A stretch of 64,000 nt of DNA, from the IMG/VR virus record IMGVR_UViG_3300037067_001739, positions 32,001-96,000 of that record; one strand, written 5' to 3'. This DNA comes from a virus (taxonomy: Duplodnaviria; Caudoviricetes). Made by a program: the position numbers and the translations under genes. The notes beneath the pieces are model-generated. The model made no database searches. It had not been told where the DNA came from and saw only the letters and a program-made list of their open reading frames with translations. Positions 13,495-62,751 of this stretch are shown here, piece after piece (the stretch's first letter is position 1; each line of letters begins with the position of its first letter).

Positions 13495-13740
13495 TTATTT
13501 AATGGTTGAGGTTTTATCCTCTGGGGGACTGCATCTTTCTTTCTCATCAACTTCCTCTTTTACTACACCGTAATAACGTTTAGCCCATGCTTGCTCTGTT
13601 GTCATAGCACGTTTGACCTCATCAAAGGAAGTCGCTTTCTTTATACTGTTCCTCAGTTCGAGTAACCTGTCTAAAGAAGAATCAACGTATCCCTTGATGA
13701 AGTCGTTCTTGAACTGCTCTAACGCCTTATCGTCTGCCAT
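13495..13740 (-). CDS. hypothetical protein
   Basis: ORF coupled to the CCA enzyme gene. Confidence 0.55.
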   Translation of the reverse strand: MADDKALEQFKNDFIKGYVDSSLDRLLELRNSIKKATSFDEVKRAMTTEQAWAKRYYGVVKEEVDEKERCSPPEDKTSTIK

Positions 13741-15076
13741 CTATGTACTCCCTTGCCTTAGCGAAAGCACCCTCTCTGTCATCCTTATCCAACTTGTCAT
13801 CAATGACCAGATTGGTCAGGTGATTCTTGATTTCACCAACAAACTTTCCAGGCTTTAGTGAGAATTCGTTCATGATTTCATTACCGTCAATAGGGGAAGC
13901 TAGAGACTCTGGTTCTTCCGCCAAGCACTCGCTCACCATCTTGGTTAGGATGGTCATGAACTTATAGCGTGGGTTCTTAGAAGAGCGAATATCACACTTT
14001 ACCAAGTCCATTAGTAGTCCGATATTATCTTCACCAACTCTACGTACTAGACGCATGATGATTCTCTTCTTAATCTTACCCCTGACAATTTCTCTCTGTA
14101 GAACGATAGGAGTCATGTGATACTTAATCAAATGACAAACGCTCTGAACAGTTTCATTATCGTAACGTAGTCTGCGTAGAAGCTTTCTAGCCTTTCTAGC
14201 ACCCACGTTGTGGTGGGAGTAGAAATGAACACCACTCTCATCTTCTATCTTGGTTTCAGGCTTACCGATGTCGTGCAAGATACAAGCTAGACGGAAGATT
14301 AGGTTTCTGTCACCCTGCTCAATCTTAGAACCCTTGTGTAGAACCAACAGAGAATGCTCGTAAGCATCCTTGATGTGATTCTTACCCTGCTGGATGTTCT
14401 TCAAGTCCATGAACTCAGGTACGATGTAGTAAATCAGTCCAGTCTGACACAACTTTCTCCAACCGTAAGAAGCTCTGCTAGACAACAGGATTCTGTTCAG
14501 TTCCTCACGGATTCTTTCCTTAGATACTATCTGTAGTCTCTCAGGATGTTCAATCTTTACGTCAAGAGTGAAGCCAAGCTCGCAGGCAAAACGTACTGCA
14601 CGAAGCATTCTTAGAGGGTCTTCGTCAAATCTTTCGTTTCCACCTACTACCTTAATCAATCTATTGTTCATATCAATCAAACCACCAAACGGGTCAACTA
14701 CAGTTCCAGTCAATGGGTCACGAGCGATGGCATTGATAGTGAAGTCTCTGCGAGACAAGTCCTCTACCAAGCTATCACCAAACACGACCTCTGGCTTACG
14801 AGAATTGGAAGGGTAAACTTCCTTTCTGTAAGAAGTCACTTCAACGGTGACACCCTTAACGTTAAGACCAATAGTACCAAATGCTTCACCCATTGCATAG
14901 ATAGCACCCAAGTCATTTAGAAGTTCCTTTATCTTAGTTGGGTGGGCATTAGTTGCTAGGTCAATATCGTGAGACTTTCTATTAAGGAAAGAATCACGGA
15001 CATGACCACCAACTTCGTACAGTTCAAGTCCTTCGTTCTTGAATCTTTCAGCTATAGTCTTTATCAATTCTTCCAT
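13727..15076 (-). CDS. cca: CCA tRNA nucleotidyltransferase with HD domain
   Basis: VGGHVRD, DIDLAT, DLSRRDFTINA, EDPLRMLRAVRF, LHDIGKP. Confidence 0.95.
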   Translation of the reverse strand: MEELIKTIAERFKNEGLELYEVGGHVRDSFLNRKSHDIDLATNAHPTKIKELLNDLGAIYAMGEAFGTIGLNVKGVTVEVTSYRKEVYPSNSRKPEVVFGDSLVEDLSRRDFTINAIARDPLTGTVVDPFGGLIDMNNRLIKVVGGNERFDEDPLRMLRAVRFACELGFTLDVKIEHPERLQIVSKERIREELNRILLSSRASYGWRKLCQTGLIYYIVPEFMDLKNIQQGKNHIKDAYEHSLLVLHKGSKIEQGDRNLIFRLACILHDIGKPETKIEDESGVHFYSHHNVGARKARKLLRRLRYDNETVQSVCHLIKYHMTPIVLQREIVRGKIKKRIIMRLVRRVGEDNIGLLMDLVKCDIRSSKNPRYKFMTILTKMVSECLAEEPESLASPIDGNEIMNEFSLKPGKFVGEIKNHLTNLVIDDKLDKDDREGAFAKAREYIDGRR

Positions 15077-28923: not shown

Positions 28924-29179
28924 ATTCTTCTACCAACCTATCAGCTATTCTCGCAAGAAGTGATTCATCGAATTTGCCCAAGTTTTTATTGATTTCTACT
29001 CGTGTCCCAAAGCACTTCATGAACAGATGATTGTCACCCATTTCTTCACGCATTATCCGTACTGCATGTAGCGGGCAACAACTACTCTGTGATGTATAAC
29101 AACCGAATCGGAAGTCACAAGCACTACAGGGTGGGGCTTTGAATGTAAAGATGTCCTCGGTAACTTGAGTTATCTCCAT
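28889..29179 (-). CDS. Cys-motif protein
   Basis: CSACDFRFGCYT. Confidence 0.72.
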   Translation of the reverse strand: MEITQVTEDIFTFKAPPCSACDFRFGCYTSQSSCCPLHAVRIMREEMGDNHLFMKCFGTRVEINKNLGKFDESLLARIADRLVEEYAIQQKSQKGN

Positions 29180-29550
29180 GACACACCCTCTATCCATTCA
29201 ACGCCCTTTATCTTTAGTCGCATCGGTTCGTTACCCTCAGCAGACAAAAACTGAGCCAAGATAACTCCATGAAAGATGTGAAACATACCATCATGCTCGG
29301 CATGTATTGTAACCTTGCTACCTACCATATTTCCACACTTAAAACACTTCGGGCAGACAGCATCAAGTTCAAATCCATCCTGTCCAGCCAACTGTCGGTT
29401 CATACTTAAATGAACTATCTGGAATGTGGAACGTCTGCTTGTCCAGCATTTGAATCGTTCATCGCATACTTGGCATTTGCTTTCATCTTTCTCGACACAC
29501 TCGTACTCAAGTTCTGCGTACATGAGCATTTCCTCAGTCGGTATTGCCAA
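29170..29550 (-). CDS. Cys-motif protein
   Basis: CQVCDERFKCWT. Confidence 0.72.
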   Translation of the reverse strand: MAIPTEEMLMYAELEYECVEKDESKCQVCDERFKCWTSRRSTFQIVHLSMNRQLAGQDGFELDAVCPKCFKCGNMVGSKVTIHAEHDGMFHIFHGVILAQFLSAEGNEPMRLKIKGVEWIEGVSWR

Positions 29551-29749
29551 TGTCGTCTACCACCTTGAGCAAGTCACTCAGTCTAGGGATTTCCCCCGAC
29601 TTGACTTTTACAGGATTGTGTTTTACACGTTCTGTAAAGCACTGAAACCTATTTTTACATGCGTTACAACAAGTGGGGTCAGTTTTCATTTTGTCACATT
29701 GACTTATTACTAGCTGACCCTCGACCCATTCAAAATGCACTTTTCCCAT
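29534..29749 (-). CDS. Cys-motif protein
   Basis: CNACKNRFQCFT. Confidence 0.72.
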   Translation of the reverse strand: MGKVHFEWVEGQLVISQCDKMKTDPTCCNACKNRFQCFTERVKHNPVKVKSGEIPRLSDLLKVVDDIGNTD

Positions 29750-29758
29750 TACACTTAC

Positions 29759-29787
29759 ACTATAGCACAAGCCACGTGCATAGTCAA
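29759..29787 (-). promoter_or_regulatory. sigma70-type promoter
   Basis: TTGACT-17 (GGCTTGTGC)-TATAGT. Confidence 0.75.
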
Positions 29788-29800
29788 GCCTGGACGTTGG

Positions 29801-30181
29801 CTATTGCTTTATGTAATCTCGAAAGTCCTTATATGTCGGGAATTTCTCCCGCATAAGCTTTGCCACACCTTCACGGTCAAGACCTTGCTCTTTCATGAGG
29901 TAATTCACAATGTCACTTTCTGACGCTCTTTGGAAGGTGCAACAAGGGCAGTATTTTGCATCCAGTTCGTAGTAATCAAATTCCTCATCTTCTTCCATCT
30001 TGTCCTCAACCGCTTCCCTACCACCTACTGTGTGGTCACGGCAGAATGTGTGTCCGTTTTCGCACTGGAACATATCAGCATCATCAAGACCCATGTCCCA
30101 TCCACTGGCATCCTCTCCGCACACATCGCAGATGAATGACGTGGAACTACTGTTACTTATAAAACCATGTCTTACTTTCAT
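29801..30181 (-). CDS. SNSSS-family protein 11
   Basis: MKVRHGFISNSSSTSF. Confidence 0.8.
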   Translation of the reverse strand: MKVRHGFISNSSSTSFICDVCGEDASGWDMGLDDADMFQCENGHTFCRDHTVGGREAVEDKMEEDEEFDYYELDAKYCPCCTFQRASESDIVNYLMKEQGLDREGVAKLMREKFPTYKDFRDYIKQ

Positions 30182-30194
30182 TATAAACTCTCCA

Positions 30195-30524
30195 TTATTT
30201 TCTTAAAGTTTCCCACAAAGATACAATTATCACATGTGAGGCATCATCTGGATGAATCACGAAATCATCAGTCTCTAATGGGGTAAGCTTCATTCCCCTC
30301 TCTATGGCTACTCGTTTGCAGTCAACAAGTAGCTCGGTTTTCTTATCCCACAACTTATAGTAATTCCGTATATGAGTGCCAAAACCATGATGATACAAGT
30401 ACAATTCATGCTCTCTTAGGACACTCTTTATATTGTTTTTAGATGATTCCTCAAGTCTGGATATGATGTCCTTGACCGCCGCATCAACGGTTAGTATCCT
30501 GTCCTCAACGATGAAATCTTCCAT
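30195..30524 (-). CDS. hypothetical protein (possibly DUF6794-like)
   Basis: HHGFGTHIRNYYKLW..HPDDASHVII. Confidence 0.6.
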   Translation of the reverse strand: MEDFIVEDRILTVDAAVKDIISRLEESSKNNIKSVLREHELYLYHHGFGTHIRNYYKLWDKKTELLVDCKRVAIERGMKLTPLETDDFVIHPDDASHVIIVSLWETLRK

Positions 30525-30525
30525 G

Positions 30526-30915
30526 CTACTCTGAGCTTACTTCGCCATAGTGCAGGTCTACTTCATTTTCCGTGTACGTTACCCCAAGTTTCTTTGCCGC
30601 CTCGATGAATTCTTTCTTCAATTCGAGAACGGTCTTACCAGCTTTCAACGCTTCCTCAGCGTAGATGCCGACATAATAAGGTTCGTAGCTGTCACGCATA
30701 ACCTCTGCATCCTCGGTGTCCCAATCAAATTCTCCACCTAAGAATACCAAAGATTTGCCATTGTACTCACCACCAAACCCATCTTCAAGACTAACCTTGT
30801 CAGCAACAGCTAACTGGTTGCCACGTCTGTCTGACGACCTGTAGCTACAGGATGCACCGACAATAAGGAAACTGGAAGAACTGGAGTTACTTACAAACCC
30901 AAACCTTAACTTCAT
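30526..30915 (-). CDS. SNSSS-family protein 10
   Basis: MKLRFGFVSNSSSSSF. Confidence 0.8.
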   Translation of the reverse strand: MKLRFGFVSNSSSSSFLIVGASCSYRSSDRRGNQLAVADKVSLEDGFGGEYNGKSLVFLGGEFDWDTEDAEVMRDSYEPYYVGIYAEEALKAGKTVLELKKEFIEAAKKLGVTYTENEVDLHYGEVSSE

Positions 30916-30930
30916 TTGCCTCTCCTTTAC

Positions 30931-31314
30931 TTAGCAGGACTCAGTGCCACCGACTAATTTTACTTCAACGTCAGGTTCACCTATCCCTGCAAAAAGTTCC
31001 TTTAATTTCTTGACATATTCTGCAACTTCATCCATAGATAATGAGAACGTGTCCATATAGGAATCTTCGACAGATGCAAGCCGATACCCGAAGTATCTTC
31101 CTTCGTCAGCATCGTCAAGAGGTTCATCTGCATCTTCTACGATTTCGCTCAGACACACATCCTCAAAACCATCTGCCCACTCAGGTAACTCAAAGCTGAA
31201 CCTCTCTGCCAGCTTTTTCTTGAGTGCTTCCTCGTCTATCTGGCTGACATCTACGGCAACCATGACGAAGCTTTGCGAACTGCTGTTTGAAACAAACCCA
31301 ATTCTTACTTTCAT
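30931..31314 (-). CDS. SNSSS-family protein 9
   Basis: MKVRIGFVSNSSSQSF. Confidence 0.8.
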   Translation of the reverse strand: MKVRIGFVSNSSSQSFVMVAVDVSQIDEEALKKKLAERFSFELPEWADGFEDVCLSEIVEDADEPLDDADEGRYFGYRLASVEDSYMDTFSLSMDEVAEYVKKLKELFAGIGEPDVEVKLVGGTESC

Positions 31315-31323
31315 TTTTATCTC

Positions 31324-31878
31324 CTAATGATAACTTATTTGCTCGTGTGGCAATTTATTGAATATTCCACCATGTTCAAGTGTAGAATAGTAAGCACCAC
31401 TTTCATCACCATAATGGAATACATAGATAACCCTATCTTTCCACTTCTCAAGCAAAGCATCTACGACCTTCTCAGCCGTCTCTGCATGTGCTTTCTCATA
31501 AGCCTTCCAGTCATAATCCTCTTTTAATTCGGCTTTAAGAATAGTGCTTCCTTTGAATTCCAAGGTAGTTATCTGCTTTGGGATTATCTTGAAATCTTCG
31601 TATTCAGGTTTGCCATCAAACCAACCATTGGCGATTGTATCAAAGACTTTCTGGTTACGGTATTTTTTCGTCCAGCGTCTTTGACCCCTCAAGTCGTTCC
31701 ACACTGTCTTAGCAATGTCCTTGGTGCTGGTAACACCCTCGTCATAAGGGTTACCCATTTCGAGGGCATCACCGAACAGCATCTTCTGGACTTCCCTATA
31801 ACCCTTTGGTACGCTAGGAAAAGCCACCACGAACATTGAGCTAGAACTATTGCTTACAAAACCTGCTCTGATTTTCAT
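31324..31878 (-). CDS. SNSSS-family protein 8
   Basis: MKIRAGFVSNSSSSMF. Confidence 0.8.
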   Translation of the reverse strand: MKIRAGFVSNSSSSMFVVAFPSVPKGYREVQKMLFGDALEMGNPYDEGVTSTKDIAKTVWNDLRGQRRWTKKYRNQKVFDTIANGWFDGKPEYEDFKIIPKQITTLEFKGSTILKAELKEDYDWKAYEKAHAETAEKVVDALLEKWKDRVIYVFHYGDESGAYYSTLEHGGIFNKLPHEQISYH

Positions 31879-32447
31879 TAAGTTGTCTCCTGCTTCAATA
31901 CGATGGCATCTCCTGTTTTAACCAAGTCATTAACCATCTGCTTGAGAGTTCCCCACATCGCATCTTCCTCAAAGGACACAAAGACCCAATCCTTGTTGCC
32001 AGCAATCTTTAGGATTTCCTGCTCACATTTGGCTCGGTCTTCCTGTAAGTCTTCCTTGAGTCTGCGTATATCTCCAAGAAAATCCCCCTTATCCCTCGCA
32101 CCACGCATTTTGGCAGGAAGTGGATACTTTCTATCTGACCTTATTGCCTCTTTACGTAGCATATGAAACGTGGAATACTTTTGTAGGAGTTCGTGGTCTA
32201 TAAAGGACTGGTTTGGTATCACATCTATTCTAGCATAAATGCCATCCAGATACACAATATCCTTGTCAATATCCTTTATCTCGGTCTTGAGTTCCTTTAT
32301 GCGCTCAGGCACAGTAGGACATGGGTTATCCATAGGGTGTTTCAGATGTTTCAGGATAAACTCCACCGACTGAACTTTGTCAGGTTTTACAAGAATGACA
32401 AAGCTTGTGCTCGAACTGTTACTTACAAATCCACTTCTCGTTTTCAT
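31878..32447 (-). CDS. SNSSS-family protein 7
   Basis: MKTRSGFVSNSSSTSF; SD GAGGT before the ATG at 32447. Confidence 0.8.
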   Translation of the reverse strand: MKTRSGFVSNSSSTSFVILVKPDKVQSVEFILKHLKHPMDNPCPTVPERIKELKTEIKDIDKDIVYLDGIYARIDVIPNQSFIDHELLQKYSTFHMLRKEAIRSDRKYPLPAKMRGARDKGDFLGDIRRLKEDLQEDRAKCEQEILKIAGNKDWVFVSFEEDAMWGTLKQMVNDLVKTGDAIVLKQETT

Positions 32448-32618
32448 AATTACCTCGTATAGCAGACAAATCTGATTCTGCACCTAGCACATTTGCTATT
32501 CCCCAATCCTCTACCACATCTTCTCGGTTTAAGTGGGCAATTTTCAGGGTCAAATGAACTACCTGGCTTAATACAGTAGTCTCTGCATAGAAGCCAACAA
32601 TATTTCTTAGCACCCACC

Positions 32619-32987
32619 TTAGTAATCTACGTTTTGTATGATTTCGATACCATCAGTTTCAGGGATACCTTTTTCATACAAGACGTATTCTTCTGGTGTA
32701 TCCTCGTTAGATACAGTACCAAAGAGAATAACTTTGCCCGCTTTGATAGCCGCAAGTGCTTTGTGGTACTTTTCAGCTATATCTGAATCTTCTTCAAGTT
32801 CCTCGTCTCCCCAATAGTCCTTGAAAGCTTTGACTAAGGCTTCCTCTGTGCTGATAACCTCATCACAGAAGTCTGCCAAGTTTACTTTGACGGCGACCTC
32901 GGTTATACCATTTGACTTATTCTTGTCAACGGCAACGATGAAACTACTGGAGCTTGAGTTGCTTACGAAGCCTATTCTAGCTTTCAT
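32619..32987 (-). CDS. SNSSS-family protein 6 (paralog of 5)
   Basis: MKARIGFVSNSSSSSF. Confidence 0.8.
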   Translation of the reverse strand: MKARIGFVSNSSSSSFIVAVDKNKSNGITEVAVKVNLADFCDEVISTEEALVKAFKDYWGDEELEEDSDIAEKYHKALAAIKAGKVILFGTVSNEDTPEEYVLYEKGIPETDGIEIIQNVDY

Positions 32988-33346
32988 TAGTAACCACCAT
33001 CACCTTGAATGACTTCAATATCGGGTGAGTCGGGAATACCTGTCTCGCAAAGGAACTGTTCAAGTGCCTCACCATCGGAGTCACAGCTACCGAAGATAAC
33101 TTTATTACCTGCTTCAATGGCTCTCAGACAATCCTTGAACTTATCTGCCGCCCAACTATCCTCCAGATAGTCGTCACCATATTCGTACTCAAAGTAGTCC
33201 TTGAGTTCCTGCTCTGTGGCGATTATCTTGTCTGCGTAGTCCGCAAGGTCAACGTCAATCTCTAACTTGATTTTTGTCGTGTCTTTGACGGCAACCACGA
33301 AGCTACTTGAACTTGAATTGCTAACAAAACCGTTTCTTATTTTCAT
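32987..33346 (-). CDS. SNSSS-family protein 5
   Basis: MKIRNGFVSNSSSSSF. Confidence 0.8.
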   Translation of the reverse strand: MKIRNGFVSNSSSSSFVVAVKDTTKIKLEIDVDLADYADKIIATEQELKDYFEYEYGDDYLEDSWAADKFKDCLRAIEAGNKVIFGSCDSDGEALEQFLCETGIPDSPDIEVIQGDGGY

Positions 33347-33712
33347 TTTCTACCTCATTCTACCGCAAGTAGGACACCTTTTCAGTGACCAATATTTATC
33401 TTGCCATTCTTTTAAGATTTCAGGATGCCCGTTGTTCATGAATTTAACACAAGCCCAACGTAAATCATCCATTTCATTGACACAGCTTGCGTCTGCTATC
33501 AGTTGCCGCATCTTGTCAACTGTCTCGACTTCAACGTTCTTATACTGTTTCATTTTAATCCTCGAAGTGGCGAATGTTTCCTGTGTCGGTAAATGCTGGT
33601 TTAATCGTGTCCCTTATATGTTTCAAATCTGACGTGGGAAGATTATTATACTCAGCATCTTTTATCTCGGCATCCAGAGCTTCTGTTAATCTCTGACGTG
33701 CCTGTTCATCTG

Positions 33713-33928
33713 CTATTTCTTCTCTAAAGCCCATTCTCCCTCTCCATGTAGCGGACAGTCTCCGCTAATCCAGAACATCTTTTCGCTGTTCGGTTTATCA
33801 TGTGTACCCCAAGCACCTCTGCCGTGTGCGTTGTCCAATACAGGACATGTACAGCCAGCTTTAATAGCCTTGTCGCTTCCTGGCGGTGCTTGTATTGTTA
33901 ATCGTTTTACTACGCTCTTACTTGGCAT
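33713..33928 (-). CDS. small Cys/His protein
   Basis: PGSDKAIKAGCTCPVLDNAHGRG..CPLHG. Confidence 0.65.
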   Translation of the reverse strand: MPSKSVVKRLTIQAPPGSDKAIKAGCTCPVLDNAHGRGAWGTHDKPNSEKMFWISGDCPLHGEGEWALEKK

Positions 33929-34210
33929 TTAGTAATCCACCACGATATATTTCGGGTCAACCCCGATACGCTCAAGAAATTCCCTGACCTGTGATTCGTG
34001 TTGGCTCATTTCACCAATGAAGTAGTAGTCATACTCATTGATATAAGTCTCATAGAGAGGTTTAACATTGGTGCCAGGAATTTCCACCACGTCACGCATC
34101 TTTGATAGCCAGTCACTAAATGCTTCTATCTGTTCGTCTGTCATGTAGCATTTAGCTATGCAAAAAGAACATGACGAAGAGTTGCTGACGAAACCTGTTC
34201 TTAGTTTCAT
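33929..34210 (-). CDS. SNSSS-family protein 4
   Basis: MKLRTGFVSNSSSCSF. Confidence 0.8.
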   Translation of the reverse strand: MKLRTGFVSNSSSCSFCIAKCYMTDEQIEAFSDWLSKMRDVVEIPGTNVKPLYETYINEYDYYFIGEMSQHESQVREFLERIGVDPKYIVVDY

Positions 34211-34527
34211 TTCTTCCTCTTCCCCAATGTTATTCTGCCCTCACCATCGTTACCATGCAGTTCTGCAACAACATAGTCACCGAGGATTTCTACGAGCCTG
34301 TAGTAAGCGTCATTGTAAGGTTCTTCCTCGGAATCCTGATGGCTGTCCCAATAATCCTCATCTTTCTGACCCATTTCTTCCTGCCACAGTTCACCCTCAG
34401 TCAACAGGATATGAAATACCTCTTTCACTTGGTCAGTCTCGGCTTCAGGTACGTTGTACCCTTCGGGAAGCATTACGACAAAAGAACTGCTGGAACTGTT
34501 GCTTACGAATCCTTGCCTGATTTTCAT
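34207..34527 (-). CDS. SNSSS-family protein 3
   Basis: MKIRQGFVSNSSSSSF. Confidence 0.8.
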   Translation of the reverse strand: MKIRQGFVSNSSSSSFVVMLPEGYNVPEAETDQVKEVFHILLTEGELWQEEMGQKDEDYWDSHQDSEEEPYNDAYYRLVEILGDYVVAELHGNDGEGRITLGKRKK

Positions 34528-34902
34528 TTAGTCCTCCGTTAGACCGAAAGCACTAGCAATATCTCTGCTGTGTTCAGTATCGAAAACGACCTTTACTTCA
34601 GCTATTCTGCCCTCTTTGTTGCGCTTGATTAGCACAGGATACGTGCCATCACCCCAACCTGTGGAGACTGTGACACCAAGTCCTGCGTGACCAAGCTTGT
34701 ACTCCCATTGAGCGTAATCCTTTTTCGTGTTGCCGTTTTTGTCGAGTCCTTCTTTTTCCCACAGCTTGTCACAAAACTCAGACCACGTTTTCGCTGGCTT
34801 TTCGCTTGCATCATCACCGATTATATAGCAAGGGTCACCGAGCCAGCATAGACCTGCGTCTACTCCGATTACTCCGATTTCTTCCCATTTTTCTTTATTC
34901 AT
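34528..34902 (-). CDS. DUF4241-like protein
   Basis: GVDAGLCWLGDPCY..STGWGDGTYPV. Confidence 0.6.
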   Translation of the reverse strand: MNKEKWEEIGVIGVDAGLCWLGDPCYIIGDDASEKPAKTWSEFCDKLWEKEGLDKNGNTKKDYAQWEYKLGHAGLGVTVSTGWGDGTYPVLIKRNKEGRIAEVKVVFDTEHSRDIASAFGLTED

Positions 34903-35282
34903 TCTATTGTCTCCCTATTCGTATAACATATAAATCTCATGTGACAATCATCGCAGTCAGGGTCACATGAGTCTGGTTTCTCATCTGTAATACCCTCATC
35001 GTCATATCCGCCACGTTCACCCCACATTATAGCATCTGGATTGACACCAATCTTCTCCATGAGTTTACCCATATCGAAGTTATCCATAAAAGTTTCGCCA
35101 TAGAGAACACCCTTGCGAACCTCAATATCCCAAGCTTCTTGGTCATAGTATTCTATACCAAGCTTCTTGCCCCACTTACGGTAGTTTATGATTTTGCAAA
35201 GCTGTTCAAGTGATAGTCTCCGTAGCGATATGGCAAATGAAGCACTACTACTATTACTAACGAAACCAATCCGTATCTTCAT
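34899..35282 (-). CDS. SNSSS-family protein 2 with Cys motif
   Basis: MKIRIGFVSNSSSASF; CDDCHMRFICYT. Confidence 0.8.
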   Translation of the reverse strand: MKIRIGFVSNSSSASFAISLRRLSLEQLCKIINYRKWGKKLGIEYYDQEAWDIEVRKGVLYGETFMDNFDMGKLMEKIGVNPDAIMWGERGGYDDEGITDEKPDSCDPDCDDCHMRFICYTNRETIE

Positions 35283-35761
35283 TCCCATACCTCGACTGGA
35301 AGCCTACCACACCATTCACCCTTACGCATATCTGCTTCTGTCTGACAACTGCAACCCTCTCCCCAATCGGCTATGCGAAAGCAATATGCTACCATTCCTT
35401 TGTTAGCTTTGAGGAATTTCTCCGCCATTTCCAGTGACCACGTAGTGTATTCATCATCCTCGTATTCTTCCATATCATCATCGCTTCTCCAGCCACCACT
35501 ACGTATCAACCTTGCAAGTTCCTCTAAAGCACCCCCACCTGTGTAACAACGAAAACGTTCCTTACACTCTGCACAATTAGTGTGCGGCGGGACACACAGA
35601 TAAAGACCTTTCTGCTCTTTCATCCATTCGAGTAGTAGTTTAGCTTGGTCTCTATTGCCTATGAACTTCTGCACATCGGCAAGCCTTTCTGGTCGCTTAT
35701 CCCACGCAACGAGAAAGCTGGTCGAACTGCTGTTGCTCACAAAACCATTTCGTATCTTCAT
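35279..35761 (-). CDS. SNSSS-family protein 1 with Cys motif
   Basis: MKIRNGFVSNSSSTSF; CAECKERFRCYT. Confidence 0.8.
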   Translation of the reverse strand: MKIRNGFVSNSSSTSFLVAWDKRPERLADVQKFIGNRDQAKLLLEWMKEQKGLYLCVPPHTNCAECKERFRCYTGGGALEELARLIRSGGWRSDDDMEEYEDDEYTTWSLEMAEKFLKANKGMVAYCFRIADWGEGCSCQTEADMRKGEWCGRLPVEVWE

Positions 35762-35930
35762 TAACGCAACCTGTGTGATTCCACCACTTTACTACAGTTG
35801 GGGCAGATGTAAGTCACCACATCTGCACCACGCCAATCTTCCTCTATCCCTAATTCCTCTACTTCTAATTCGTCAACTCGTGTAGAGCAGTTGGGGCATT
35901 CAAGGTAGACTGGAAATTCATAATCTGTTT

Positions 35931-36986
35931 TCATTTTGCTATTACTTCTACAGAATGTTCACTTACTGGTTCATCAAGTTTAAGATTGTAAATCGGGCAC
36001 ATCCTGCAATCGTTACAATCCTTATTTCCCATGACACGAGTGCGGAATTTTTTTGTCTCCTCTGCATTCCACACGTCACGAAGGAAATCATCGCATCCAA
36101 CTACATCCACTCCTCTATATTCTGGAGTTCCTTCCGAAAAACTGCAAGGAAACCCTATACCATCAACATTGATGTAGTAAGAAAACAGCGTTGATTCGCA
36201 AGGTTCTGACATAGTTTTGTAAAGCTTAAAGTTCTTGTCACCCTCAACCGCTTTAAGAAAGTTGGAAGCGGTACAGCTATCGAACCCAAACTTGCCACCA
36301 GTTTCCATTGCAGTCTCAATGAGGTCTTTGAATTTACCCATAGACCCAAGCTGGTGTAGTTCGTTACGTTCCCCCTTTGGTTTCAGCCACAGGAAAACAA
36401 TAGCGTTCAGATTTGCGAGACGAGGGTCAATCACTCTATCCAGATTCGCTGTATAGCACTTCATGTACGTCTCTTTTGAAAGGAGAGAGTGTATGTTTAC
36501 CTGCTTCATTCCTCTATCTGTTAATTCTTTAACAGCATTGTAACAGGTGTCCTTATCATACAAGGAGACGGCGACTGCACCACAGGTTTTTACCAATCTG
36601 TCATACAGCGCATCCGTCATACGTTCACCATTGATGGTGACATTGGGGATTACTCCGTTCTCACGGCAGTAGTCCATGATTTTCCACATATCAGGATTGC
36701 CGTCAATATCACCGATACCGAAAGCAATCTGAGTTAAATGCTTGGGAAACTTATCGAACATGGTCTTAAATGTATCGAAACTCATGTTCTTGCCACACCG
36801 TCTGTTAGATTTATAACACCAAGGGCATTCCCTTGAACAGACAGTGCTGATTTCAATGTCCAGAATCTCAGGTCCGAATGGAGAGTATTCGGGGTCGTCA
36901 TTTTCATCCTTACCCCAACGGGCAAAGAATCCATTCCTCATGTCAAATACGAAATTGTAATTTGGTGACCTAAATTCTTTATACAT
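35931..36986 (-). CDS. radical SAM enzyme with SPASM/twitch-like C-terminus
   Basis: CSRECPWC (CxxxCxxC); CESTLFSYYINVDGIGFPCSF..CNDCRMC. Confidence 0.9.
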   Translation of the reverse strand: MYKEFRSPNYNFVFDMRNGFFARWGKDENDDPEYSPFGPEILDIEISTVCSRECPWCYKSNRRCGKNMSFDTFKTMFDKFPKHLTQIAFGIGDIDGNPDMWKIMDYCRENGVIPNVTINGERMTDALYDRLVKTCGAVAVSLYDKDTCYNAVKELTDRGMKQVNIHSLLSKETYMKCYTANLDRVIDPRLANLNAIVFLWLKPKGERNELHQLGSMGKFKDLIETAMETGGKFGFDSCTASNFLKAVEGDKNFKLYKTMSEPCESTLFSYYINVDGIGFPCSFSEGTPEYRGVDVVGCDDFLRDVWNAEETKKFRTRVMGNKDCNDCRMCPIYNLKLDEPVSEHSVEVIAK

Positions 36987-36988
36987 TC

Positions 36989-37303
36989 TTACCTCTGCGT
37001 ATAGCAATAAAATCTATAATTACAGGACACACAATATTGTTCCCGCAACGTTCCTAATTTCCTTGTGCATCTACCAAAATGACAACGAGAACACCACAGC
37101 TTACCAAACTTGCCGAAGTCAATCAGGTACTTGTGGACTTTTCCCTTTGTTACATGTTTCTCAAGAACCCCAATCGTATCTGACGGTACTCCTACCAAGG
37201 CTCTACCATAAAAACTTTTTGGTACTTTAATGGAGTAGAAAACTCTTACAGCATCACCAGCGACTACGCCATAGTGATACGAGTGTTCTCTAAGCCTAGT
37301 CAT
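36989..37303 (-). CDS. Cys-motif protein
   Basis: C-terminal CVSCNYRFYCYT. Confidence 0.72.
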   Translation of the reverse strand: MTRLREHSYHYGVVAGDAVRVFYSIKVPKSFYGRALVGVPSDTIGVLEKHVTKGKVHKYLIDFGKFGKLWCSRCHFGRCTRKLGTLREQYCVSCNYRFYCYTQR

Positions 37304-37544
37304 AGTGAAATGCTCTGTACTCGCTTAACTGCTTCTCGATGTCCATGTTAAGGGAGTAGACTTCCATGACTCTCTGCATATTCGTACCATCGAATTTGGA
37401 TTCGACTTCACGGACATTCTCACTCTCGGAAACAAAGACAGGGTAATCTTCGTAGTCAAACGTATCGCACACAACAAGCATGTGCGTGGCATTTTCTTGT
37501 TTCGCTCTTTCTAACCAGCTTCTAATCTTGTCTTTTGTAGTCAT
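37296..37544 (-). CDS. hypothetical protein
   Basis: ATHMLVVCDTFDYEDYPVFV..MQRVMEVYSL; SD GAGG. Confidence 0.7.
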   Translation of the reverse strand: MTTKDKIRSWLERAKQENATHMLVVCDTFDYEDYPVFVSESENVREVESKFDGTNMQRVMEVYSLNMDIEKQLSEYRAFHYD

Positions 37545-37563
37545 ACTTCCTCACTCTCATACT

Positions 37564-37592
37564 ATTCTAGCACATGCCTTGATGAGAGTCAA
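37564..37592 (-). promoter_or_regulatory. sigma70-type promoter heading the radical SAM / SNSSS unit
   Basis: TTGACT-17 (GGCATGTGC)-TAGAAT. Confidence 0.78.
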
Positions 37593-37605
37593 GCCTGGAT
37601 TCAGG

Positions 37606-37983
37606 CTATGTGTGACGGAACTTCTTTTCCGTGTAACACTGGAATCTATCATAACAATCATCGCATGACTTTACCTTGAAAGTAGCTTTCAAGAACTCAA
37701 AACACTCATCATCCCCATTCTCTGCCCTTTTTGCAATGAACTCAAGCATTCTTGGGGAAGCACAGATAACGTCAGCATTGGCTTGGTCTTCCACTTCGCA
37801 ATTCAGACCATGCGTGTAACCTATGCTATTACCCTCTGTATGGAGGGTGGCTATGGACAAGTCCTCATCTTCATCGTGCGTCTTAGACCCACGAATACAA
37901 ATGTCTTTACAGCCATTATCATCTGATGGATACCAGTCACCTTGTGTGTACCTCGGTAACCTGATTATCTTTCTGTCAGACAT
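37606..37983 (-). CDS. Cys-motif protein
   Basis: CDDCYDRFQCYT. Confidence 0.72.
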   Translation of the reverse strand: MSDRKIIRLPRYTQGDWYPSDDNGCKDICIRGSKTHDEDEDLSIATLHTEGNSIGYTHGLNCEVEDQANADVICASPRMLEFIAKRAENGDDECFEFLKATFKVKSCDDCYDRFQCYTEKKFRHT

Positions 37984-38249
37984 AGAAACCTATCCTTACA
38001 ATGGTTACATAACTCACGGAAGCCGAAACTTTTACAAGTTTGCATGAACGTCTCGATTCTGTAGTCGTCCATAAGAGCCATTATCTTCTCTACCTGAGCG
38101 TCAATCATTTTGACGCTAGTGTCAATTTCAATGGTATGATTATGCCCAACGCTCAAGTCTACTTTCTGACAGGCATCTTCAATAACCTCGTATATCTTGT
38201 CAGAATACTTGTCGTAGCATTCTTCTGGTGTTTTTAACTGCCTGTCCAA
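37965..38249 (-). CDS. Cys-motif protein
   Basis: CNHCKDRFLCLT. Confidence 0.72.
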   Translation of the reverse strand: MDRQLKTPEECYDKYSDKIYEVIEDACQKVDLSVGHNHTIEIDTSVKMIDAQVEKIMALMDDYRIETFMQTCKSFGFRELCNHCKDRFLCLTER

Positions 38250-38962
38250 CTTCTTACACCCTCGATGTAAGTCCTACCCTCAACAATAAAGTCCTCAAGG
38301 TCGTGGTCATTGAGCCACTTCTTGATACGGTCAACTCTACCTTTTCTGGTAGTCTCACGTACCACCGTTATCTGGTCACTGAGTTGTGGATTGGTAGCAA
38401 GTTCCTCAAAACTCTGCCGCACCACTCCAAGGTAGTTGAAGTTTTTCTCGCACCACTTTGCAGGAATACCCTCTCTCCAACGTTCCTCAATTCGCTCTAT
38501 ATTCCAATCCATAGGCGGAAGAAGAACAATGAACCTTTCTGGTTTTGGTGTCAAGGACATGGTGTACTGGTATTCCGCATTGTCAAAAATGCCCTTACGA
38601 TATTCAGGTGCTAACCAACCCATTTCAACACACGTATTCACGTATGCCATATCATCAAGGAAACACCTGTCACCAATGACAACAGATTTAGGTGATTGGG
38701 TCATTGCGTATGCCAAGTTCTCTCTGTGCTCTACGCAATGCAGAGCGTTTCGCCAGACCTGACGGCTGACGTTATCGGTAAGACCTTCCATGTGGGCAAT
38801 CTGCTCCTTGACTCTCCCCATATCGAACTGCTTCAAGTCCTCAATCAGAGTAGATTTTCCCACGCCATGAGGTCCACACAGATACACGACCTGCTTGTTG
38901 GCTTCTTTCGCTTTCTCAGTTGTAAAGTCAAATACTACTGGCGGGTTGTATTCACATGTCAT
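38234..38962 (-). CDS. P-loop nucleotide kinase (dNMP/thymidylate kinase-like)
   Basis: GPHGVGKST, VIGDRCFLD. Confidence 0.78.
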   Translation of the reverse strand: MTCEYNPPVVFDFTTEKAKEANKQVVYLCGPHGVGKSTLIEDLKQFDMGRVKEQIAHMEGLTDNVSRQVWRNALHCVEHRENLAYAMTQSPKSVVIGDRCFLDDMAYVNTCVEMGWLAPEYRKGIFDNAEYQYTMSLTPKPERFIVLLPPMDWNIERIEERWREGIPAKWCEKNFNYLGVVRQSFEELATNPQLSDQITVVRETTRKGRVDRIKKWLNDHDLEDFIVEGRTYIEGVRSWTGS

Positions 38963-39298: not shown

Positions 39299-40042
39299 TT
39301 ATTCTTCGTAACAATAAAATTTTTGTTTGCAATTCTTACACTTGCTATCGTCTTTCCACCATGCTTCACAGACAGCTTTGAAGCTATTCATTTCTGCCAG
39401 TATGGGTTGGATATTGGCATCTTTCTTTACAGGAGTTGCGATAGCCAAGGTCAACTGCTTGTCAACATGCTTATGGGACAAAGCTTTGGTGACCACTTCT
39501 TTGATTTTATCCCGAATCTCTTTGCCTCTCGGAGTATTTTTTCCTCCGCTATGAGCAATTGCCGCTGGATGATAGGTGATGATTACGTCATATTTGCCCC
39601 TGAAAGTAAAGCCAGTTCCAACAATATCTTTCATTGCAACTGACTTCTCACCCCCAAGAGCTATGTACGGAACTTTGCCCATACAGACAATAATGCTTGG
39701 GTCAAGATTCTCAATCTCGGTTATCAATCTCTCATTACACCATTTGATTTCTGCGTCTGTCGGTGTACGATTGTATGTCTTGCCTTCGACCACCTTAGTA
39801 GGTCTACAAGTAACAGCGTTGATGTAATTCCCATCGTCTCTAGTGCCACCACATTCCTCAACGATTTCGTTAAAGTCCTGCCCTGCAACACCAACCAACG
39901 GTTTGCCATCCTGAGCTTCATGATAGCCTGGAGCTTCGGCAAGATAGAGAATCTTGGAACTTTCGTGCAACTCCGATGGAACAAATACCGCTTTGACTAG
40001 CGTACACTCGTCACATTTTCCATTAGGTGCTTTACTTGTCAT
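39299..40042 (-). CDS. uracil-DNA glycosylase family 4, with C-terminal Cys motif
   Basis: AEAPGYHE..GKPLVG, NAVTCRP..NRTPT, TYHPAA; CKNCKQKFYCY. Confidence 0.88.
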   Translation of the reverse strand: MTSKAPNGKCDECTLVKAVFVPSELHESSKILYLAEAPGYHEAQDGKPLVGVAGQDFNEIVEECGGTRDDGNYINAVTCRPTKVVEGKTYNRTPTDAEIKWCNERLITEIENLDPSIIVCMGKVPYIALGGEKSVAMKDIVGTGFTFRGKYDVIITYHPAAIAHSGGKNTPRGKEIRDKIKEVVTKALSHKHVDKQLTLAIATPVKKDANIQPILAEMNSFKAVCEAWWKDDSKCKNCKQKFYCYEE

Positions 40043-59854: not shown

Positions 59855-60129
59855 TTCTTTATCGTATAGCAGAGGAATCTATCTTCGCAGTCTCCGCACA
59901 TGTCCAGTGCCTTGAACATCTTACAGTTACGAATATCTGCTAATTCTCTTAATTCATCCTCATGTAATGCCCAAAACTGACCATTTTCAAATTGAAGATG
60001 ATATTTCCTCACCTTGTAGTCAATGGCGAACACCCAACCGAACAACCCTAAGAATGTTTCCTCGCCAATTCTACCAGTTTCTTTTATCTTAATCCTGTCG
60101 CCAAGATTGATAGCGTTTTCTAACTTCAT
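59851..60129 (-). CDS. Cys-motif protein
   Basis: CGDCEDRFLCYT. Confidence 0.72.
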   Translation of the reverse strand: MKLENAINLGDRIKIKETGRIGEETFLGLFGWVFAIDYKVRKYHLQFENGQFWALHEDELRELADIRNCKMFKALDMCGDCEDRFLCYTIKK

Positions 60130-61046
60130 ACGATTGTGTCAATCTGATGTACTGCCTTGTCGAAGCGGATACACTTGAACTGAGGATGCCTCAATGAATT
60201 GACAGTACCATCTGCATTCCGAATCGCACCATAATGCTTTACAGTGACCACAATTTTTGGTGTAACGTAGAACTCATCGCCCTTGTTCCCTGTGGTTATT
60301 GATTGCAGGATTGGAAGCAATGTTTCCTTGGGTACGGTATTTGCACCGAAGCCACCACCCACGTATGTCAAGCGTTGAAGCTTGTTATCAACCCTGTGTC
60401 CAACAAGGATTGAGAGGGTCTTTGCCCTGCGAGAGCCTGACTGATAACCCATGATTACAAAGTCATTGTCAGCCATGAACTTCCGCTTCGCCCACCGACC
60501 AGTTTGCCCATCAATATACTTGGACAGTGGGTCTTTAATTACGATGCCCTCGAATCCCATGCTGACTACACGGTTAAAAAACGCATCCAACTCCTGCTGA
60601 TTCCGACAAATTGCCTTGGGTACAAGACTGACTTTCTTGTTGTAGAACGTCAGACTTTCCAGAAGCTTTCGGGTGGCAATGTGGTCGTTGTCCTTCCAGA
60701 CTTCTTGACCATCGTACTTGAGACACCCAAAGATTGCCAAATTCAAATCGGGGTCAAGTTTGTGAGCGAGGAAGTCATAGAAATTAGTGCCAGCTCCATA
60801 GACTAACTCCCCCAAGAACACGCTATCATCGGGAATATCTATCTTGGTCACTGGCATGTCAGTCCTTATACGACCATGTTCGGGTTTGTTGGCAAGAAAG
60901 ATGTCACCATGTTTCTTGATTACGTACTGGAACTCTCCATCCATCTTGACCTCGGCAAGACAAGGGAAGGGAATGTGCTCTCCCTCAATTTCCATGAAAG
61001 GGAGTCCGTTGTAAAGCGGGCTTGTCTTATCCTGATATGTCCTCAT
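60126..61046 (-). CDS. ATP-dependent DNA ligase
   Basis: EVKMDGE, LGELV, FEGIVIKD, WAKRK, VGGGF, SLRHPQF..RFDK. Confidence 0.9.
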   Translation of the reverse strand: MRTYQDKTSPLYNGLPFMEIEGEHIPFPCLAEVKMDGEFQYVIKKHGDIFLANKPEHGRIRTDMPVTKIDIPDDSVFLGELVYGAGTNFYDFLAHKLDPDLNLAIFGCLKYDGQEVWKDNDHIATRKLLESLTFYNKKVSLVPKAICRNQQELDAFFNRVVSMGFEGIVIKDPLSKYIDGQTGRWAKRKFMADNDFVIMGYQSGSRRAKTLSILVGHRVDNKLQRLTYVGGGFGANTVPKETLLPILQSITTGNKGDEFYVTPKIVVTVKHYGAIRNADGTVNSLRHPQFKCIRFDKAVHQIDTIV

Positions 61047-61593: not shown

Positions 61594-62751
61594 TCATTCT
61601 CCACCTGCCTTAAAGTTGTACACAGGTTTCATCATGAAGTCAATTTCCACTGTCTCCCCGATTGCCTCTACGATTACGTCTTTGTCCTTATATGCCATCG
61701 GAGATTCGTCTATTGTGTCAATCGTTGCGGTTGTGGTATAGATACCTTCCATTTCGGATTTGAATTCATCCATCGAGAGTGTCTCTTTGGCTTTCCTTCT
61801 GGACAGTATCCTACCTGCACCATGCGGTGCGGATTCGTTCCACTTAGTATTTCCCTTGCCAGTACAGACTGCAACACCGTCTCGCATATTGAACGGAATC
61901 ACTAACCGTTCTCCATAGTGTGCCGATACCGCACCTTTCCTGACAATTTTATCCTCAAAATTGATGTAGTTATGGACTGTTTCAATGGCGTTGGAATCCC
62001 AGGCAGACTGTCCGAAGTAACTCAGGATAACTTCTGCCATGACTCCCCTGTTCATCTTTGCGTAAAGCTGTGCTATCTTCATTGCCTCAAGATAACTTTC
62101 AGCTCCGAAGCCAATCGGTAGATACTCAAGGTTCTTGTAAGCGTCAGCCCCAACGAACATGGTCTTGAGCAATTCTTTAGCTTTGCTTTGGTAGTGGTTT
62201 GCTACCCGCAACCCGAAATTCCTGCTACCCGAATGGATGAGAAGCCAGTATTCTCCCTCATCCGTCTGGTCTATTTCGATGAAATGATTACCACCACCGA
62301 GTGTCCCGATTGAGCCAACAACCTTGGACTGGTCTTGACCTGTGACTCCTGCCAATCCGATAACATCGGACATTCCTTTGCCAAAGTAATCCTTGGGTTT
62401 CTTACCAGTCACCATTTTTTCATCGGTGCTTCTAATGTTGAAGCCACTCGGAACATTCTTCTTGATAAAAGTATCCAGTGCCTTGAAGTCAATGCTCTCT
62501 GCTTTCAATGGGTAAGCAAGCACTCCACAGCCAATGTCTACCCCCACAACGTTAGGGATAACGTACTCATTCATCTTGGCAGTAAAACCTATTACCGCAC
62601 CAGCACCAGCATGACAATCTGGCATGATAGCGATGTAGGTATGAGCAAACGCTGGATGATTGAGGAACGAGTAGATTTGGCTAATTGTTTCTTGGTCTAG
62701 TTCGTCAATCATGACGTTTGCCGAATTGTATTTTCCTCTAAATGTCTGCAA
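61594..62751 (-). CDS. rtcB: RtcB RNA ligase
   Basis: MPDCHAG, VGVDIGCG, GTLGGGNHFIE, HSGSR, HNY, SAPHGAGR, DESPMAYK. Confidence 0.95.
   Translation of the reverse strand: MQTFRGKYNSANVMIDELDQETISQIYSFLNHPAFAHTYIAIMPDCHAGAGAVIGFTAKMNEYVIPNVVGVDIGCGVLAYPLKAESIDFKALDTFIKKNVPSGFNIRSTDEKMVTGKKPKDYFGKGMSDVIGLAGVTGQDQSKVVGSIGTLGGGNHFIEIDQTDEGEYWLLIHSGSRNFGLRVANHYQSKAKELLKTMFVGADAYKNLEYLPIGFGAESYLEAMKIAQLYAKMNRGVMAEVILSYFGQSAWDSNAIETVHNYINFEDKIVRKGAVSAHYGERLVIPFNMRDGVAVCTGKGNTKWNESAPHGAGRILSRRKAKETLSMDEFKSEMEGIYTTTATIDTIDESPMAYKDKDVIVEAIGETVEIDFMMKPVYNFKAGGE

Follow-up and report, generated by a model that had tools for sequence, protein, structure and literature searches.

A phage radical SAM enzyme and an array of proteins sharing an N-terminal tag: a recurrent viral gene pairing and candidate protein modification module

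Why should eleven small, mostly unrelated phage proteins begin with nearly the same 16 residues, and why should their genes lie downstream of a gene for a radical S-adenosylmethionine (SAM) enzyme? The locus that raises this question fills positions 29801-37592 of a 64,000-nucleotide (nt) window of a 134,397-bp phage genome (positions 32,001 to 96,000 of IMG/VR record IMGVR_UViG_3300037067_001739; all positions below are in window numbering), an interval that the listing of open reading frames (ORFs) shows to be occupied by closely packed minus-strand ORFs. The eleven ORFs with the common N-terminus, referred to here as the tag, encode proteins of 93-189 amino acids (aa) and are spread over 29801-35761 on the minus strand. 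Our favoured answer, to which we assign a probability of roughly 55%, is that a single radical SAM maturase serves many unrelated proteins, recognising and modifying the tag at their N-terminus.

All eleven proteins start MK-x-R-x-G-F-[VI]-S-N-S-S-S-x-[SM]-F, and M1, K2, R4, G6, F7, S9, N10, S11, S12, S13 and F16 are invariant in the window copies. Across the first 16 codons amino-acid identity is 82% versus 43% identity at third codon positions, and serine is encoded by both AGY and TCN codons; because the two types of serine codon are mixed and the third positions have diverged, selection acts on the tag at the protein level and not at the DNA level. A six-frame scan found no further copy of the tag in the window or in the whole genome, and the isoelectric point (pI) is 4.1-5.1 for nine of the eleven tagged proteins (the two longest have values of 7.0 and 7.7). 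These results bear out what a sequence-only reading of the window had reported, namely eleven mostly acidic proteins of this size range (confirmed by both the ORF listing and the six-frame scan), with protein-level selection on their N-terminus and no other ORF with the motif in the window, a statement that now extends to the entire genome. Other explanations of the tag were rejected: its scrambled codons exclude a DNA-level repeat or promoter, and a secretion signal (Sec or Tat) or a lipoprotein signal was dismissed on inspection, the tag having no hydrophobic core, twin arginine or lipobox cysteine. Nor is there support for an N-terminal catalytic motif of the SGNH or HAD-like kind, as fold searches gave no such relatives.

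The tag is tied to the first residue of the protein. Of its 340 matches in the IMG/VR loci described below, 332 start at residue 1, and a profile of the first 36 residues of tagged proteins had 28,818 matches (E <= 0.001) among 1.84 billion representative proteins (50%-identity clusters), a figure that is an upper estimate, the start position having been looked at in the best 150 matches, 142 of which began at residue 1. The exceptions that were inspected are two tagged ORFs read as one, and each inner tag again starts MK. Such double-tag database proteins (P0104-P0110) look like two neighbouring tagged ORFs joined across a stop codon, either by gene calling under another genetic code or through loss of the stop. 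Few of the profile matches carried a taxon label, and those that did were nearly all viral; in the ESM Atlas, the clusters nearest to a tagged protein were virus-dominated and annotated only as 'hypothetical protein'. The tag contains no conserved cysteine (Cys occupies position 14 in only 9 of 265 proteins), and two of the bodies encoded in the window are Cys-free.

The pairing of tag and enzyme was followed in two sets of IMG/VR loci, 78 anchored on the family of the 184-aa tagged protein of the window and 80 anchored on the enzyme (41-80% identity), and was found to recur in about a hundred different metagenomic virus sequences. The co-occurrence that the sequence-only reading had offered as its own check was seen in both directions. 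Starting from the enzyme, tagged ORFs lie within 10 kb in 74 of 80 loci at a median distance of 528 bp, and all 330 tags are on the strand of the enzyme gene (284 downstream, 46 upstream). Starting from the tag, an enzyme homologue (30-80% identity) lies within 10 kb in 50 of 78 loci and elsewhere on the contig in 13 of the remaining 28, so that 63/78 carry both; the 13 distant cases include seven of the eight records that are at least 90% complete, and most of the loci left without an enzyme are small fragments. More than one tagged ORF is present in 58 of the 78 tag-anchored loci, with a maximum of 13. When the families recurring within 6 kb of the enzyme were counted, the enzyme itself was present in 80/80 loci, tagged ORFs in 73/80 and the next family in 8/80. 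Because the next neighbour family occurs in only eight loci, the genome backgrounds evidently differ while the pair persists.

T4-like phages of Klebsiella, Enterobacter, Citrobacter and Escherichia also have both components, and the 173-175 records with the one are essentially those with the other; Pseudotevenvirus and its relatives (e.g. Miller, RB16, Lw1 and many Klebsiella phages) are among them. At the DNA level the region had no match in the phage collection, nor had the 184-aa protein of the window in a tblastn search; tblastn with its Miller homologue matched 175 records. Among 185,579 prokaryote species genomes only 10 loci were found, nine of them on metagenome-bin contigs. The contigs concerned (L164-L173) were binned with Patescibacteria, Bacilli, Heimdallarchaeota, Nanoarchaeota and Gammaproteobacteria, with one in a Flagellimonas marina assembly, and are probably phage contigs in bins. 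The system appears to be confined to viruses, and its host range may be very wide.

A divergent clade of the enzyme (clade B), approximately 30% identical to the window enzyme, is also directly followed by tagged arrays, and here the tag reads MK-I-K-x-D-F-V-T-N-S-S-S-S-S-F (MKIKxDFVTNSSS). Across 98 distinct enzyme genes, clade A was accompanied by tags with R/K/H at position 4, G6 and S9 in 371/371 cases and clade B by D6-T9 tags in 16/16. Body clusters 0, 1, 2 and 23 were found with both tag variants, and because these four clusters carry either variant, the variant follows the enzyme and not the body. Such a partition is what enzyme-substrate or enzyme-partner co-evolution predicts. The same data bear on the simplest alternative, in which enzyme and tagged genes have no functional link and are merely co-located in a variable early-gene region. 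Unrelated genes may travel together in the mosaic early regions of phages, but adjacency here persists down to approximately 30% enzyme identity while the other neighbours change, the tags lie without exception on the strand of the enzyme, and clade and tag variant partition perfectly; we give this explanation next to no credence.

Beyond the tag, the proteins diverge. After removal of the first 20 residues, the 437 distinct tagged proteins from all loci fell into 120 BLAST body clusters, and profile-profile comparison (hhalign) of the 14 largest clusters gave a top probability of 24%. Even the commonest body, that of the 184-aa type, accompanies the enzyme in no more than 28 of the 80 enzyme-anchored loci, and the enzyme is therefore linked to the tag and not to any one body. 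Searches of 129 representative bodies against Pfam returned one match (STAS-like DUF4325) and no sulfatase family, and the tagged proteins of the window had no match in Pfam, NCBIfam or PADLOC. The 184-aa protein has about 100 full-length metagenome relatives, none of which is named or has a Pfam domain, and its ORF spans positions 1-170 of 170 of phrog_7397 (E 5e-15); other window ORFs match phrog_7397 over its first 18-36 positions only.

An AlphaFold2 (AF2) model of the 184-aa protein is confident overall (mean predicted local distance difference test score, pLDDT, 91.8). Residues 1-10, although the most conserved, average 47 and the rest exceed 85, and residues 13-20 form a core strand; in the model the tag looks like a loose N-terminal arm of about 11 residues that continues into the first strand of the body. 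No significant match to this model was found with Foldseek in the PDB (best E 0.53), with VIA-align over 48,161 chains (best Z 3.8) or in BFVD (best E 0.04), and a profile of the family had no match among PDB sequences; failed fold searches are not proof of a new fold. Within the 184-aa subfamily D158, E168 and H184 are invariant and H169, Q66 and G85 nearly so. Its C-terminal block (S-D-N-D-G, then T-L-E-H-G-G-I-F, then I-S-x-H) is not seen in other paralogues, and judging from sequence conservation D158, E168, H169 and H184 may form a metal or catalytic site.

These features of the bodies are the ground of the main rival explanation, which we regard as unlikely. It takes the tagged proteins for members of a single superfamily that evolves very fast and in which the N-terminal strand and the Ser-rich loop form a binding or catalytic site of their own; they would then be partners of the enzyme (for instance product binding proteins, carriers or regulators) instead of substrates. 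The second half of the tag is indeed a core beta strand in a confident model, in several enzyme families phosphate is bound by a Ser-rich loop that follows the first strand, the additional invariant residues of the 184-aa subfamily are site-like, and clusters 0 and 3 resemble each other by eye in a C-terminal strand and acidic-loop pattern (the pair behind the 24% hhalign probability). Set against this, no pair among the 14 cluster profiles exceeds that value, the additional conserved residues are not shared by other paralogues, and the invariant first 11 or so residues are modelled as loose and not as packed into a site. A fixed distance from Met1 in hundreds of proteins would be unusual for an internal site, and the fold has no solved relative that would back an enzymatic role.

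What, then, is the enzyme? Its gene (35931-37007, minus strand) probably starts at the ATG at 36986 and not at the TTG at 37007, the former being favoured because it has a GAGG upstream and lies 2 nt past the stop codon of the preceding ORF; the likely product is 351 aa long. It matches Pfam Radical_SAM (PF04055) with 31.5 bits (cut-off 29.5) and phrog_7293 with an E value of 5e-89, and the C57-x3-C61-x2-C64 cluster motif (the CxxxCxxC motif of radical SAM enzymes) is invariant across 35 homologues. The sequence-only reading had called it a radical SAM enzyme of the SPASM type; the first part stands, and the second is borderline, with Pfam SPASM (PF13186) at 22.0 bits versus a cut-off of 21.5 and TIGR04085 below its cut-off (17 versus 27). 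The SPASM seven-cysteine motif, C-x9-15-G-x4-C, gap, C-x2-C-x5-C-x3-C, gap, C, binds two auxiliary clusters. The window enzyme has seven C-terminal cysteines, including C270-x12-G-x4-C288, and C245, C270, C288 and C337 are the only auxiliary cysteines that are invariant across the 35 homologues. Because only these four are invariant, the clade may bind a single auxiliary cluster and be twitch-like.

The AF2 model of the enzyme (pLDDT 92.1) aligns with Z > 15 to many solved radical SAM enzymes. Its nearest structure is SuiB (PDB 5v1t; Z 24.4, 324 residues aligned, root-mean-square deviation 4.1), followed by SkfB (Z 21.9), CteB (Z 20.0) and the anaerobic sulfatase-maturing enzyme, anSME (Z 19.8); all four modify peptides or proteins. 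Pyruvate formate-lyase (PFL)-activating enzyme lies far below the peptide maturases (Z 13.6), and among solved radical SAM enzymes SkfB also gives the best match by sequence profile (E 3e-7). The first 45 or so residues, before the cluster motif, form a three-strand sheet in the model; they are among the most conserved parts of the family, and the sheet falls inside the ranges aligned to SuiB and SkfB. In four loci of related phages the radical SAM gene is in two to three pieces 0.8-3 kb apart (L035:2445-7433, L071:2918-4999, L031:6513-9122 and L057:9063-12147), probably due to introns or homing-endonuclease insertions; the same splitting has been reported for Klebsiella phage Kpn35c1 in comparison with Raoultella phage Rpl1 (PMC9960720).

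The kinship with enzymes of ribosomally synthesised and post-translationally modified peptide (RiPP) pathways invites the idea of a RiPP-like factory, in which the tag is the core peptide that is modified, cut off and released, its many copies raising the yield and the bodies serving as carriers. The closest solved relatives of the enzyme do make small modified peptides, and each genome holds many copies of one nearly invariant peptide. Yet no protease or exporter recurs in the module among the families within 6 kb of the enzyme in the 80 loci. Members of a body cluster stay conserved in many phages and are modelled with confidence, so the bodies are under selection in their own right, and a leaderless core peptide at the extreme N-terminus would be atypical. 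We consider such a factory highly improbable.

The reading that we prefer is a two-component, virus-specific 'tag and modify' module made up of one radical SAM enzyme and a shared tag. The enzyme would recognise the exposed N-terminal arm, M1 to about S11 of MK-x-R-x-G-F-V-S-N-S-S-S-S-S-F, and a 5'-deoxyadenosyl radical would modify a residue in or beside this arm; the second half of the tag (S-S-F and the hydrophobic residues that follow) would form the first beta strand of each body. If recognition is by the tag alone, many unrelated, mostly acidic small proteins could therefore pass through one enzyme. We infer from the pairing and from the class of the enzyme that it binds the tag, that the tag is its substrate and that a modified product results. 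By analogy with related enzymes the chemistry could be a C-C crosslink with the invariant K2 or F7, conversion of serine to formylglycine, or epimerisation, none of which is favoured by the data. The sequence-only reading had pictured one maturase installing a crosslink or cofactor on a library of diversified proteins; the recurrent pairing, the link to the tag instead of the body, the matching of variant and clade and the structural class of the enzyme support the maturase and its library, and a crosslink or cofactor is one of the products that such an enzyme might make.

Several observations weigh against this reading and have to be set beside it. Six of the 80 enzyme-anchored loci have no tag in their flanks, and in T4-like Pseudotevenvirus phages and their relatives, as seen in Miller, the enzyme gene is approximately 19 kb from the two tagged genes. 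One complete phage genome of 225 kb, L041 (224,826 bases in IMG/VR, flanked by direct terminal repeats), encodes a single tagged protein, of the 184-aa type, and lacks radical SAM genes altogether. Co-inheritance of the module could by itself account for the agreement between clade and variant. Viperin-like and other small-molecule radical SAM enzymes follow closely behind the peptide-modifying ones in the structural comparison (Z 19.1). Finally, a RiPP recognition element (RRE), an N-terminal PqqD-like domain of about 90 residues, was not detected with the Pfam RRE/PqqD model, and only some 45 residues precede the cluster motif. L041 is the sole clear exception to the pairing: one complete genome carries the tag family without the enzyme, so the tag is not commonly found alone.

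Two of these observations, the separation of the genes in T4-like phages and the complete phage with a tag and no enzyme, would fit if the tag were a sorting, assembly or stability signal for other machinery (capsid packaging, timed proteolysis or co-assembly by strand pairing), the enzyme being linked to it in some other way. The internal-protein loci of T4 look similar, with a short shared N-terminus on unrelated, fast-changing small proteins. A signal of this kind leaves unexplained why the enzyme is the only recurrent neighbour and why, in four body families, the variant of the tag depends on the clade of the enzyme, and the tagged proteins are acidic, unlike DNA-binding internal proteins; it is, in our judgement, a rather improbable explanation. 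Modification of the tag by the enzyme remains our preferred reading.

Host takeover and the countering of defence are frequent tasks of small acidic phage proteins made early in infection. A broader proposal, which we put forward tentatively as a possibility, is that a 16-residue tag, borne by unrelated viral protein families in the tens of thousands, marks them out for modification by a radical SAM enzyme dedicated to this task. What is installed could be, for example, an N-terminal crosslink or a reactive group, with which a changeable set of effectors aimed at the host would be activated or protected. If true, this would be a new class of post-translational modification on folded proteins, with new radical chemistry on a Ser/Asn/Phe/Lys motif. 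Fast-changing early phage proteins, effectors included, could then be found by sequence alone, the tag serving as the flag, and the compact enzyme-plus-tag pair could be reused in protein engineering. Should the enzyme modify the tag, a large modification system would have stood uncharacterised in Pfam and PHROGs and unmentioned in the searched literature, where queries on the motif and on phage radical SAM/SPASM systems found no description of the tag or of the enzyme-tag pairing. Members are known from T4-like phages in culture (those of Escherichia coli, Klebsiella and Citrobacter), which makes the proposal testable at the bench.

In the window, all genes of the locus lie on the minus strand and are described here in the order of transcription. 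The apparent unit is headed by a promoter-like site (37564-37592; TTGACT, 17 nt, TAGAAT, with a TG before the -10 element and 10/12 matches) located between ORFs 37606-37983 and 37296-37544, and the next such site (29759-29787) marks its end. These are the two best minus-strand promoter-like sites within 29000-38500, and a scan of that interval found no minus-strand terminator-like site between them; both are matches to a consensus only, and the total count of promoter-like sites shows no excess over shuffled sequence. The sequence-only reading had described a single unit of the enzyme gene followed by the eleven tagged ORFs; the promoter-like sites are as it placed them, and nine further ORFs also belong to the unit. 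Two of these precede the enzyme gene, namely an 82-aa ORF (37296-37544), first in the unit, with no NCBIfam family and a relative in only one other locus, and a 104-aa ORF (36989-37303) with no NCBIfam family that ends in a separate Cys motif, C-x2-C-x2-RF-x-CYT. Directly after the enzyme gene comes a lineage-specific 57-aa zinc-ribbon-like ORF (35761-35934) with two CxxC pairs and relatives in only two other loci. The other six are untagged ORFs interspersed among the tagged ones.

Each tagged ORF has a GGAG/GAGG-like site upstream. Tagged protein 1 (35279-35761; 160 aa) matches phrog_7397 at its N-terminus only, and tagged protein 2 (34899-35282; 127 aa, or 129 aa from an in-frame ATG 6 nt upstream) has a body of cluster 2; both also contain the Cys motif. 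An untagged ORF of 124 aa (34528-34902), with no family and no relatives in other loci, separates them from tagged proteins 3 (34207-34527; 106 aa, a singleton body) and 4 (33929-34210; 93 aa). Three small untagged ORFs of 71, 59 and 67 aa (33350-33928), without relatives in other loci, are followed by tagged protein 5 (32987-33346; 119 aa) and its paralogue, tagged protein 6 (32619-32987; 122 aa), both with bodies of cluster 3. An untagged 55-aa ORF (32450-32617) that ends in the Cys motif then precedes tagged protein 7 (31878-32447; 189 aa), tagged protein 8 (31324-31878; the 184-aa protein, of cluster 0, which is the core of phrog_7397 and the most widespread body family), tagged protein 9 (30931-31314; 127 aa) and tagged protein 10 (30526-30915; 129 aa). 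The last untagged ORF (30195-30524; 109 aa, no family) lies before tagged protein 11 (29801-30181; 126 aa), which has a Cys-rich body of cluster 5; among database proteins, a relative of this body is found with the other variant of the tag.

The Cys motif seen in several of these ORFs is a separate, portable element, C-x2-C-x2-[RK]-[FY]-x-C-[YFWL]-[TSE], present in 42 ORFs of the window (993-59898) and 48 of the genome (17074-111426). It is always on the coding strand and its codons are scrambled, and it is appended to unrelated proteins that include a family-4 uracil-DNA glycosylase (39299-40042) and the two tagged proteins noted above. The motif as the real substrate of the enzyme was considered and rejected: it occurs only in close relatives of this phage (L002, L003, L006-L008 and L058), and other enzyme-bearing loci do not have it. 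Elsewhere in the window, the minus-strand ORF 20105-21346 matches phrog_1211 (adenylosuccinate-synthetase-like, PurZ type; E 3.5e-68), a similarity which suggests that the phage may have 2-aminoadenine in place of adenine in its DNA. A tRNA nucleotidyltransferase (13727-15076), an RtcB-type RNA ligase (61594-62751) and an ATP-dependent DNA ligase (60126-61046, minus strand) are also encoded.

How does the locus compare with systems that are already known? In PHROGs the window enzyme falls in phrog_7293 and the 184-aa protein in phrog_7397, two families that bear the label 'unknown function' and between which no link is recorded, and phrog_7397 is one of at least 120 body clusters that bear the tag. 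SuiB, the radical SAM/SPASM maturase of streptide that forms a Lys-Trp crosslink, is the best structural match and acts on a ribosomal peptide. It differs from the window enzyme in sequence (13-14% identity), in having a full RRE and two auxiliary clusters where the window enzyme has about 45 N-terminal residues and four invariant auxiliary cysteines, and in its substrate, the candidate substrates here being folded proteins of 90-280 aa, many per genome. Of the next structural neighbours, the sactipeptide maturases SkfB and CteB differ in that the tag has no conserved donor cysteine for a thioether of the sactipeptide or ranthipeptide kind. The remaining neighbour, anSME, works on whole proteins without an RRE, as is proposed for the window enzyme, although the tag has no (C/S)-x-P-x-R sulfatase motif and no body is sulfatase-like. 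Glycyl-radical proteins carry the loop R-[IVT]-[CSA]-G-[YF] near the C-terminus of a large barrel and are served by a small PflA-type activase, whereas the tag has R-x-G-F, with another spacing and at the N-terminus.

Two further systems resemble the locus in organisation. The internal proteins of T4 are likewise unrelated, fast-changing small phage proteins with a short common N-terminus, there a capsid-targeting sequence, but they are basic and are cleaved by the prohead protease, and their signal is not known to have an enzyme partner, whereas the tag described here changes together with the clade of the radical SAM enzyme. That one radical SAM enzyme may serve many substrates is familiar from RiPP chemistry, but no such case is known among folded viral proteins. 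In the prochlorosin system a single lanthipeptide synthetase, ProcM, serves about 30 precursors that have a shared leader and hypervariable cores. The likeness to the present locus lies in one enzyme acting (here, as proposed) on many diversified products through a conserved N-terminal part, with multi-copy sets in each genome. The enzyme class is another one, and where prochlorosins join a long, removed leader to short variable peptides, the apparently virus-restricted proteins of this locus join a conserved N-terminus of 16 residues to a variable part that is a whole protein.

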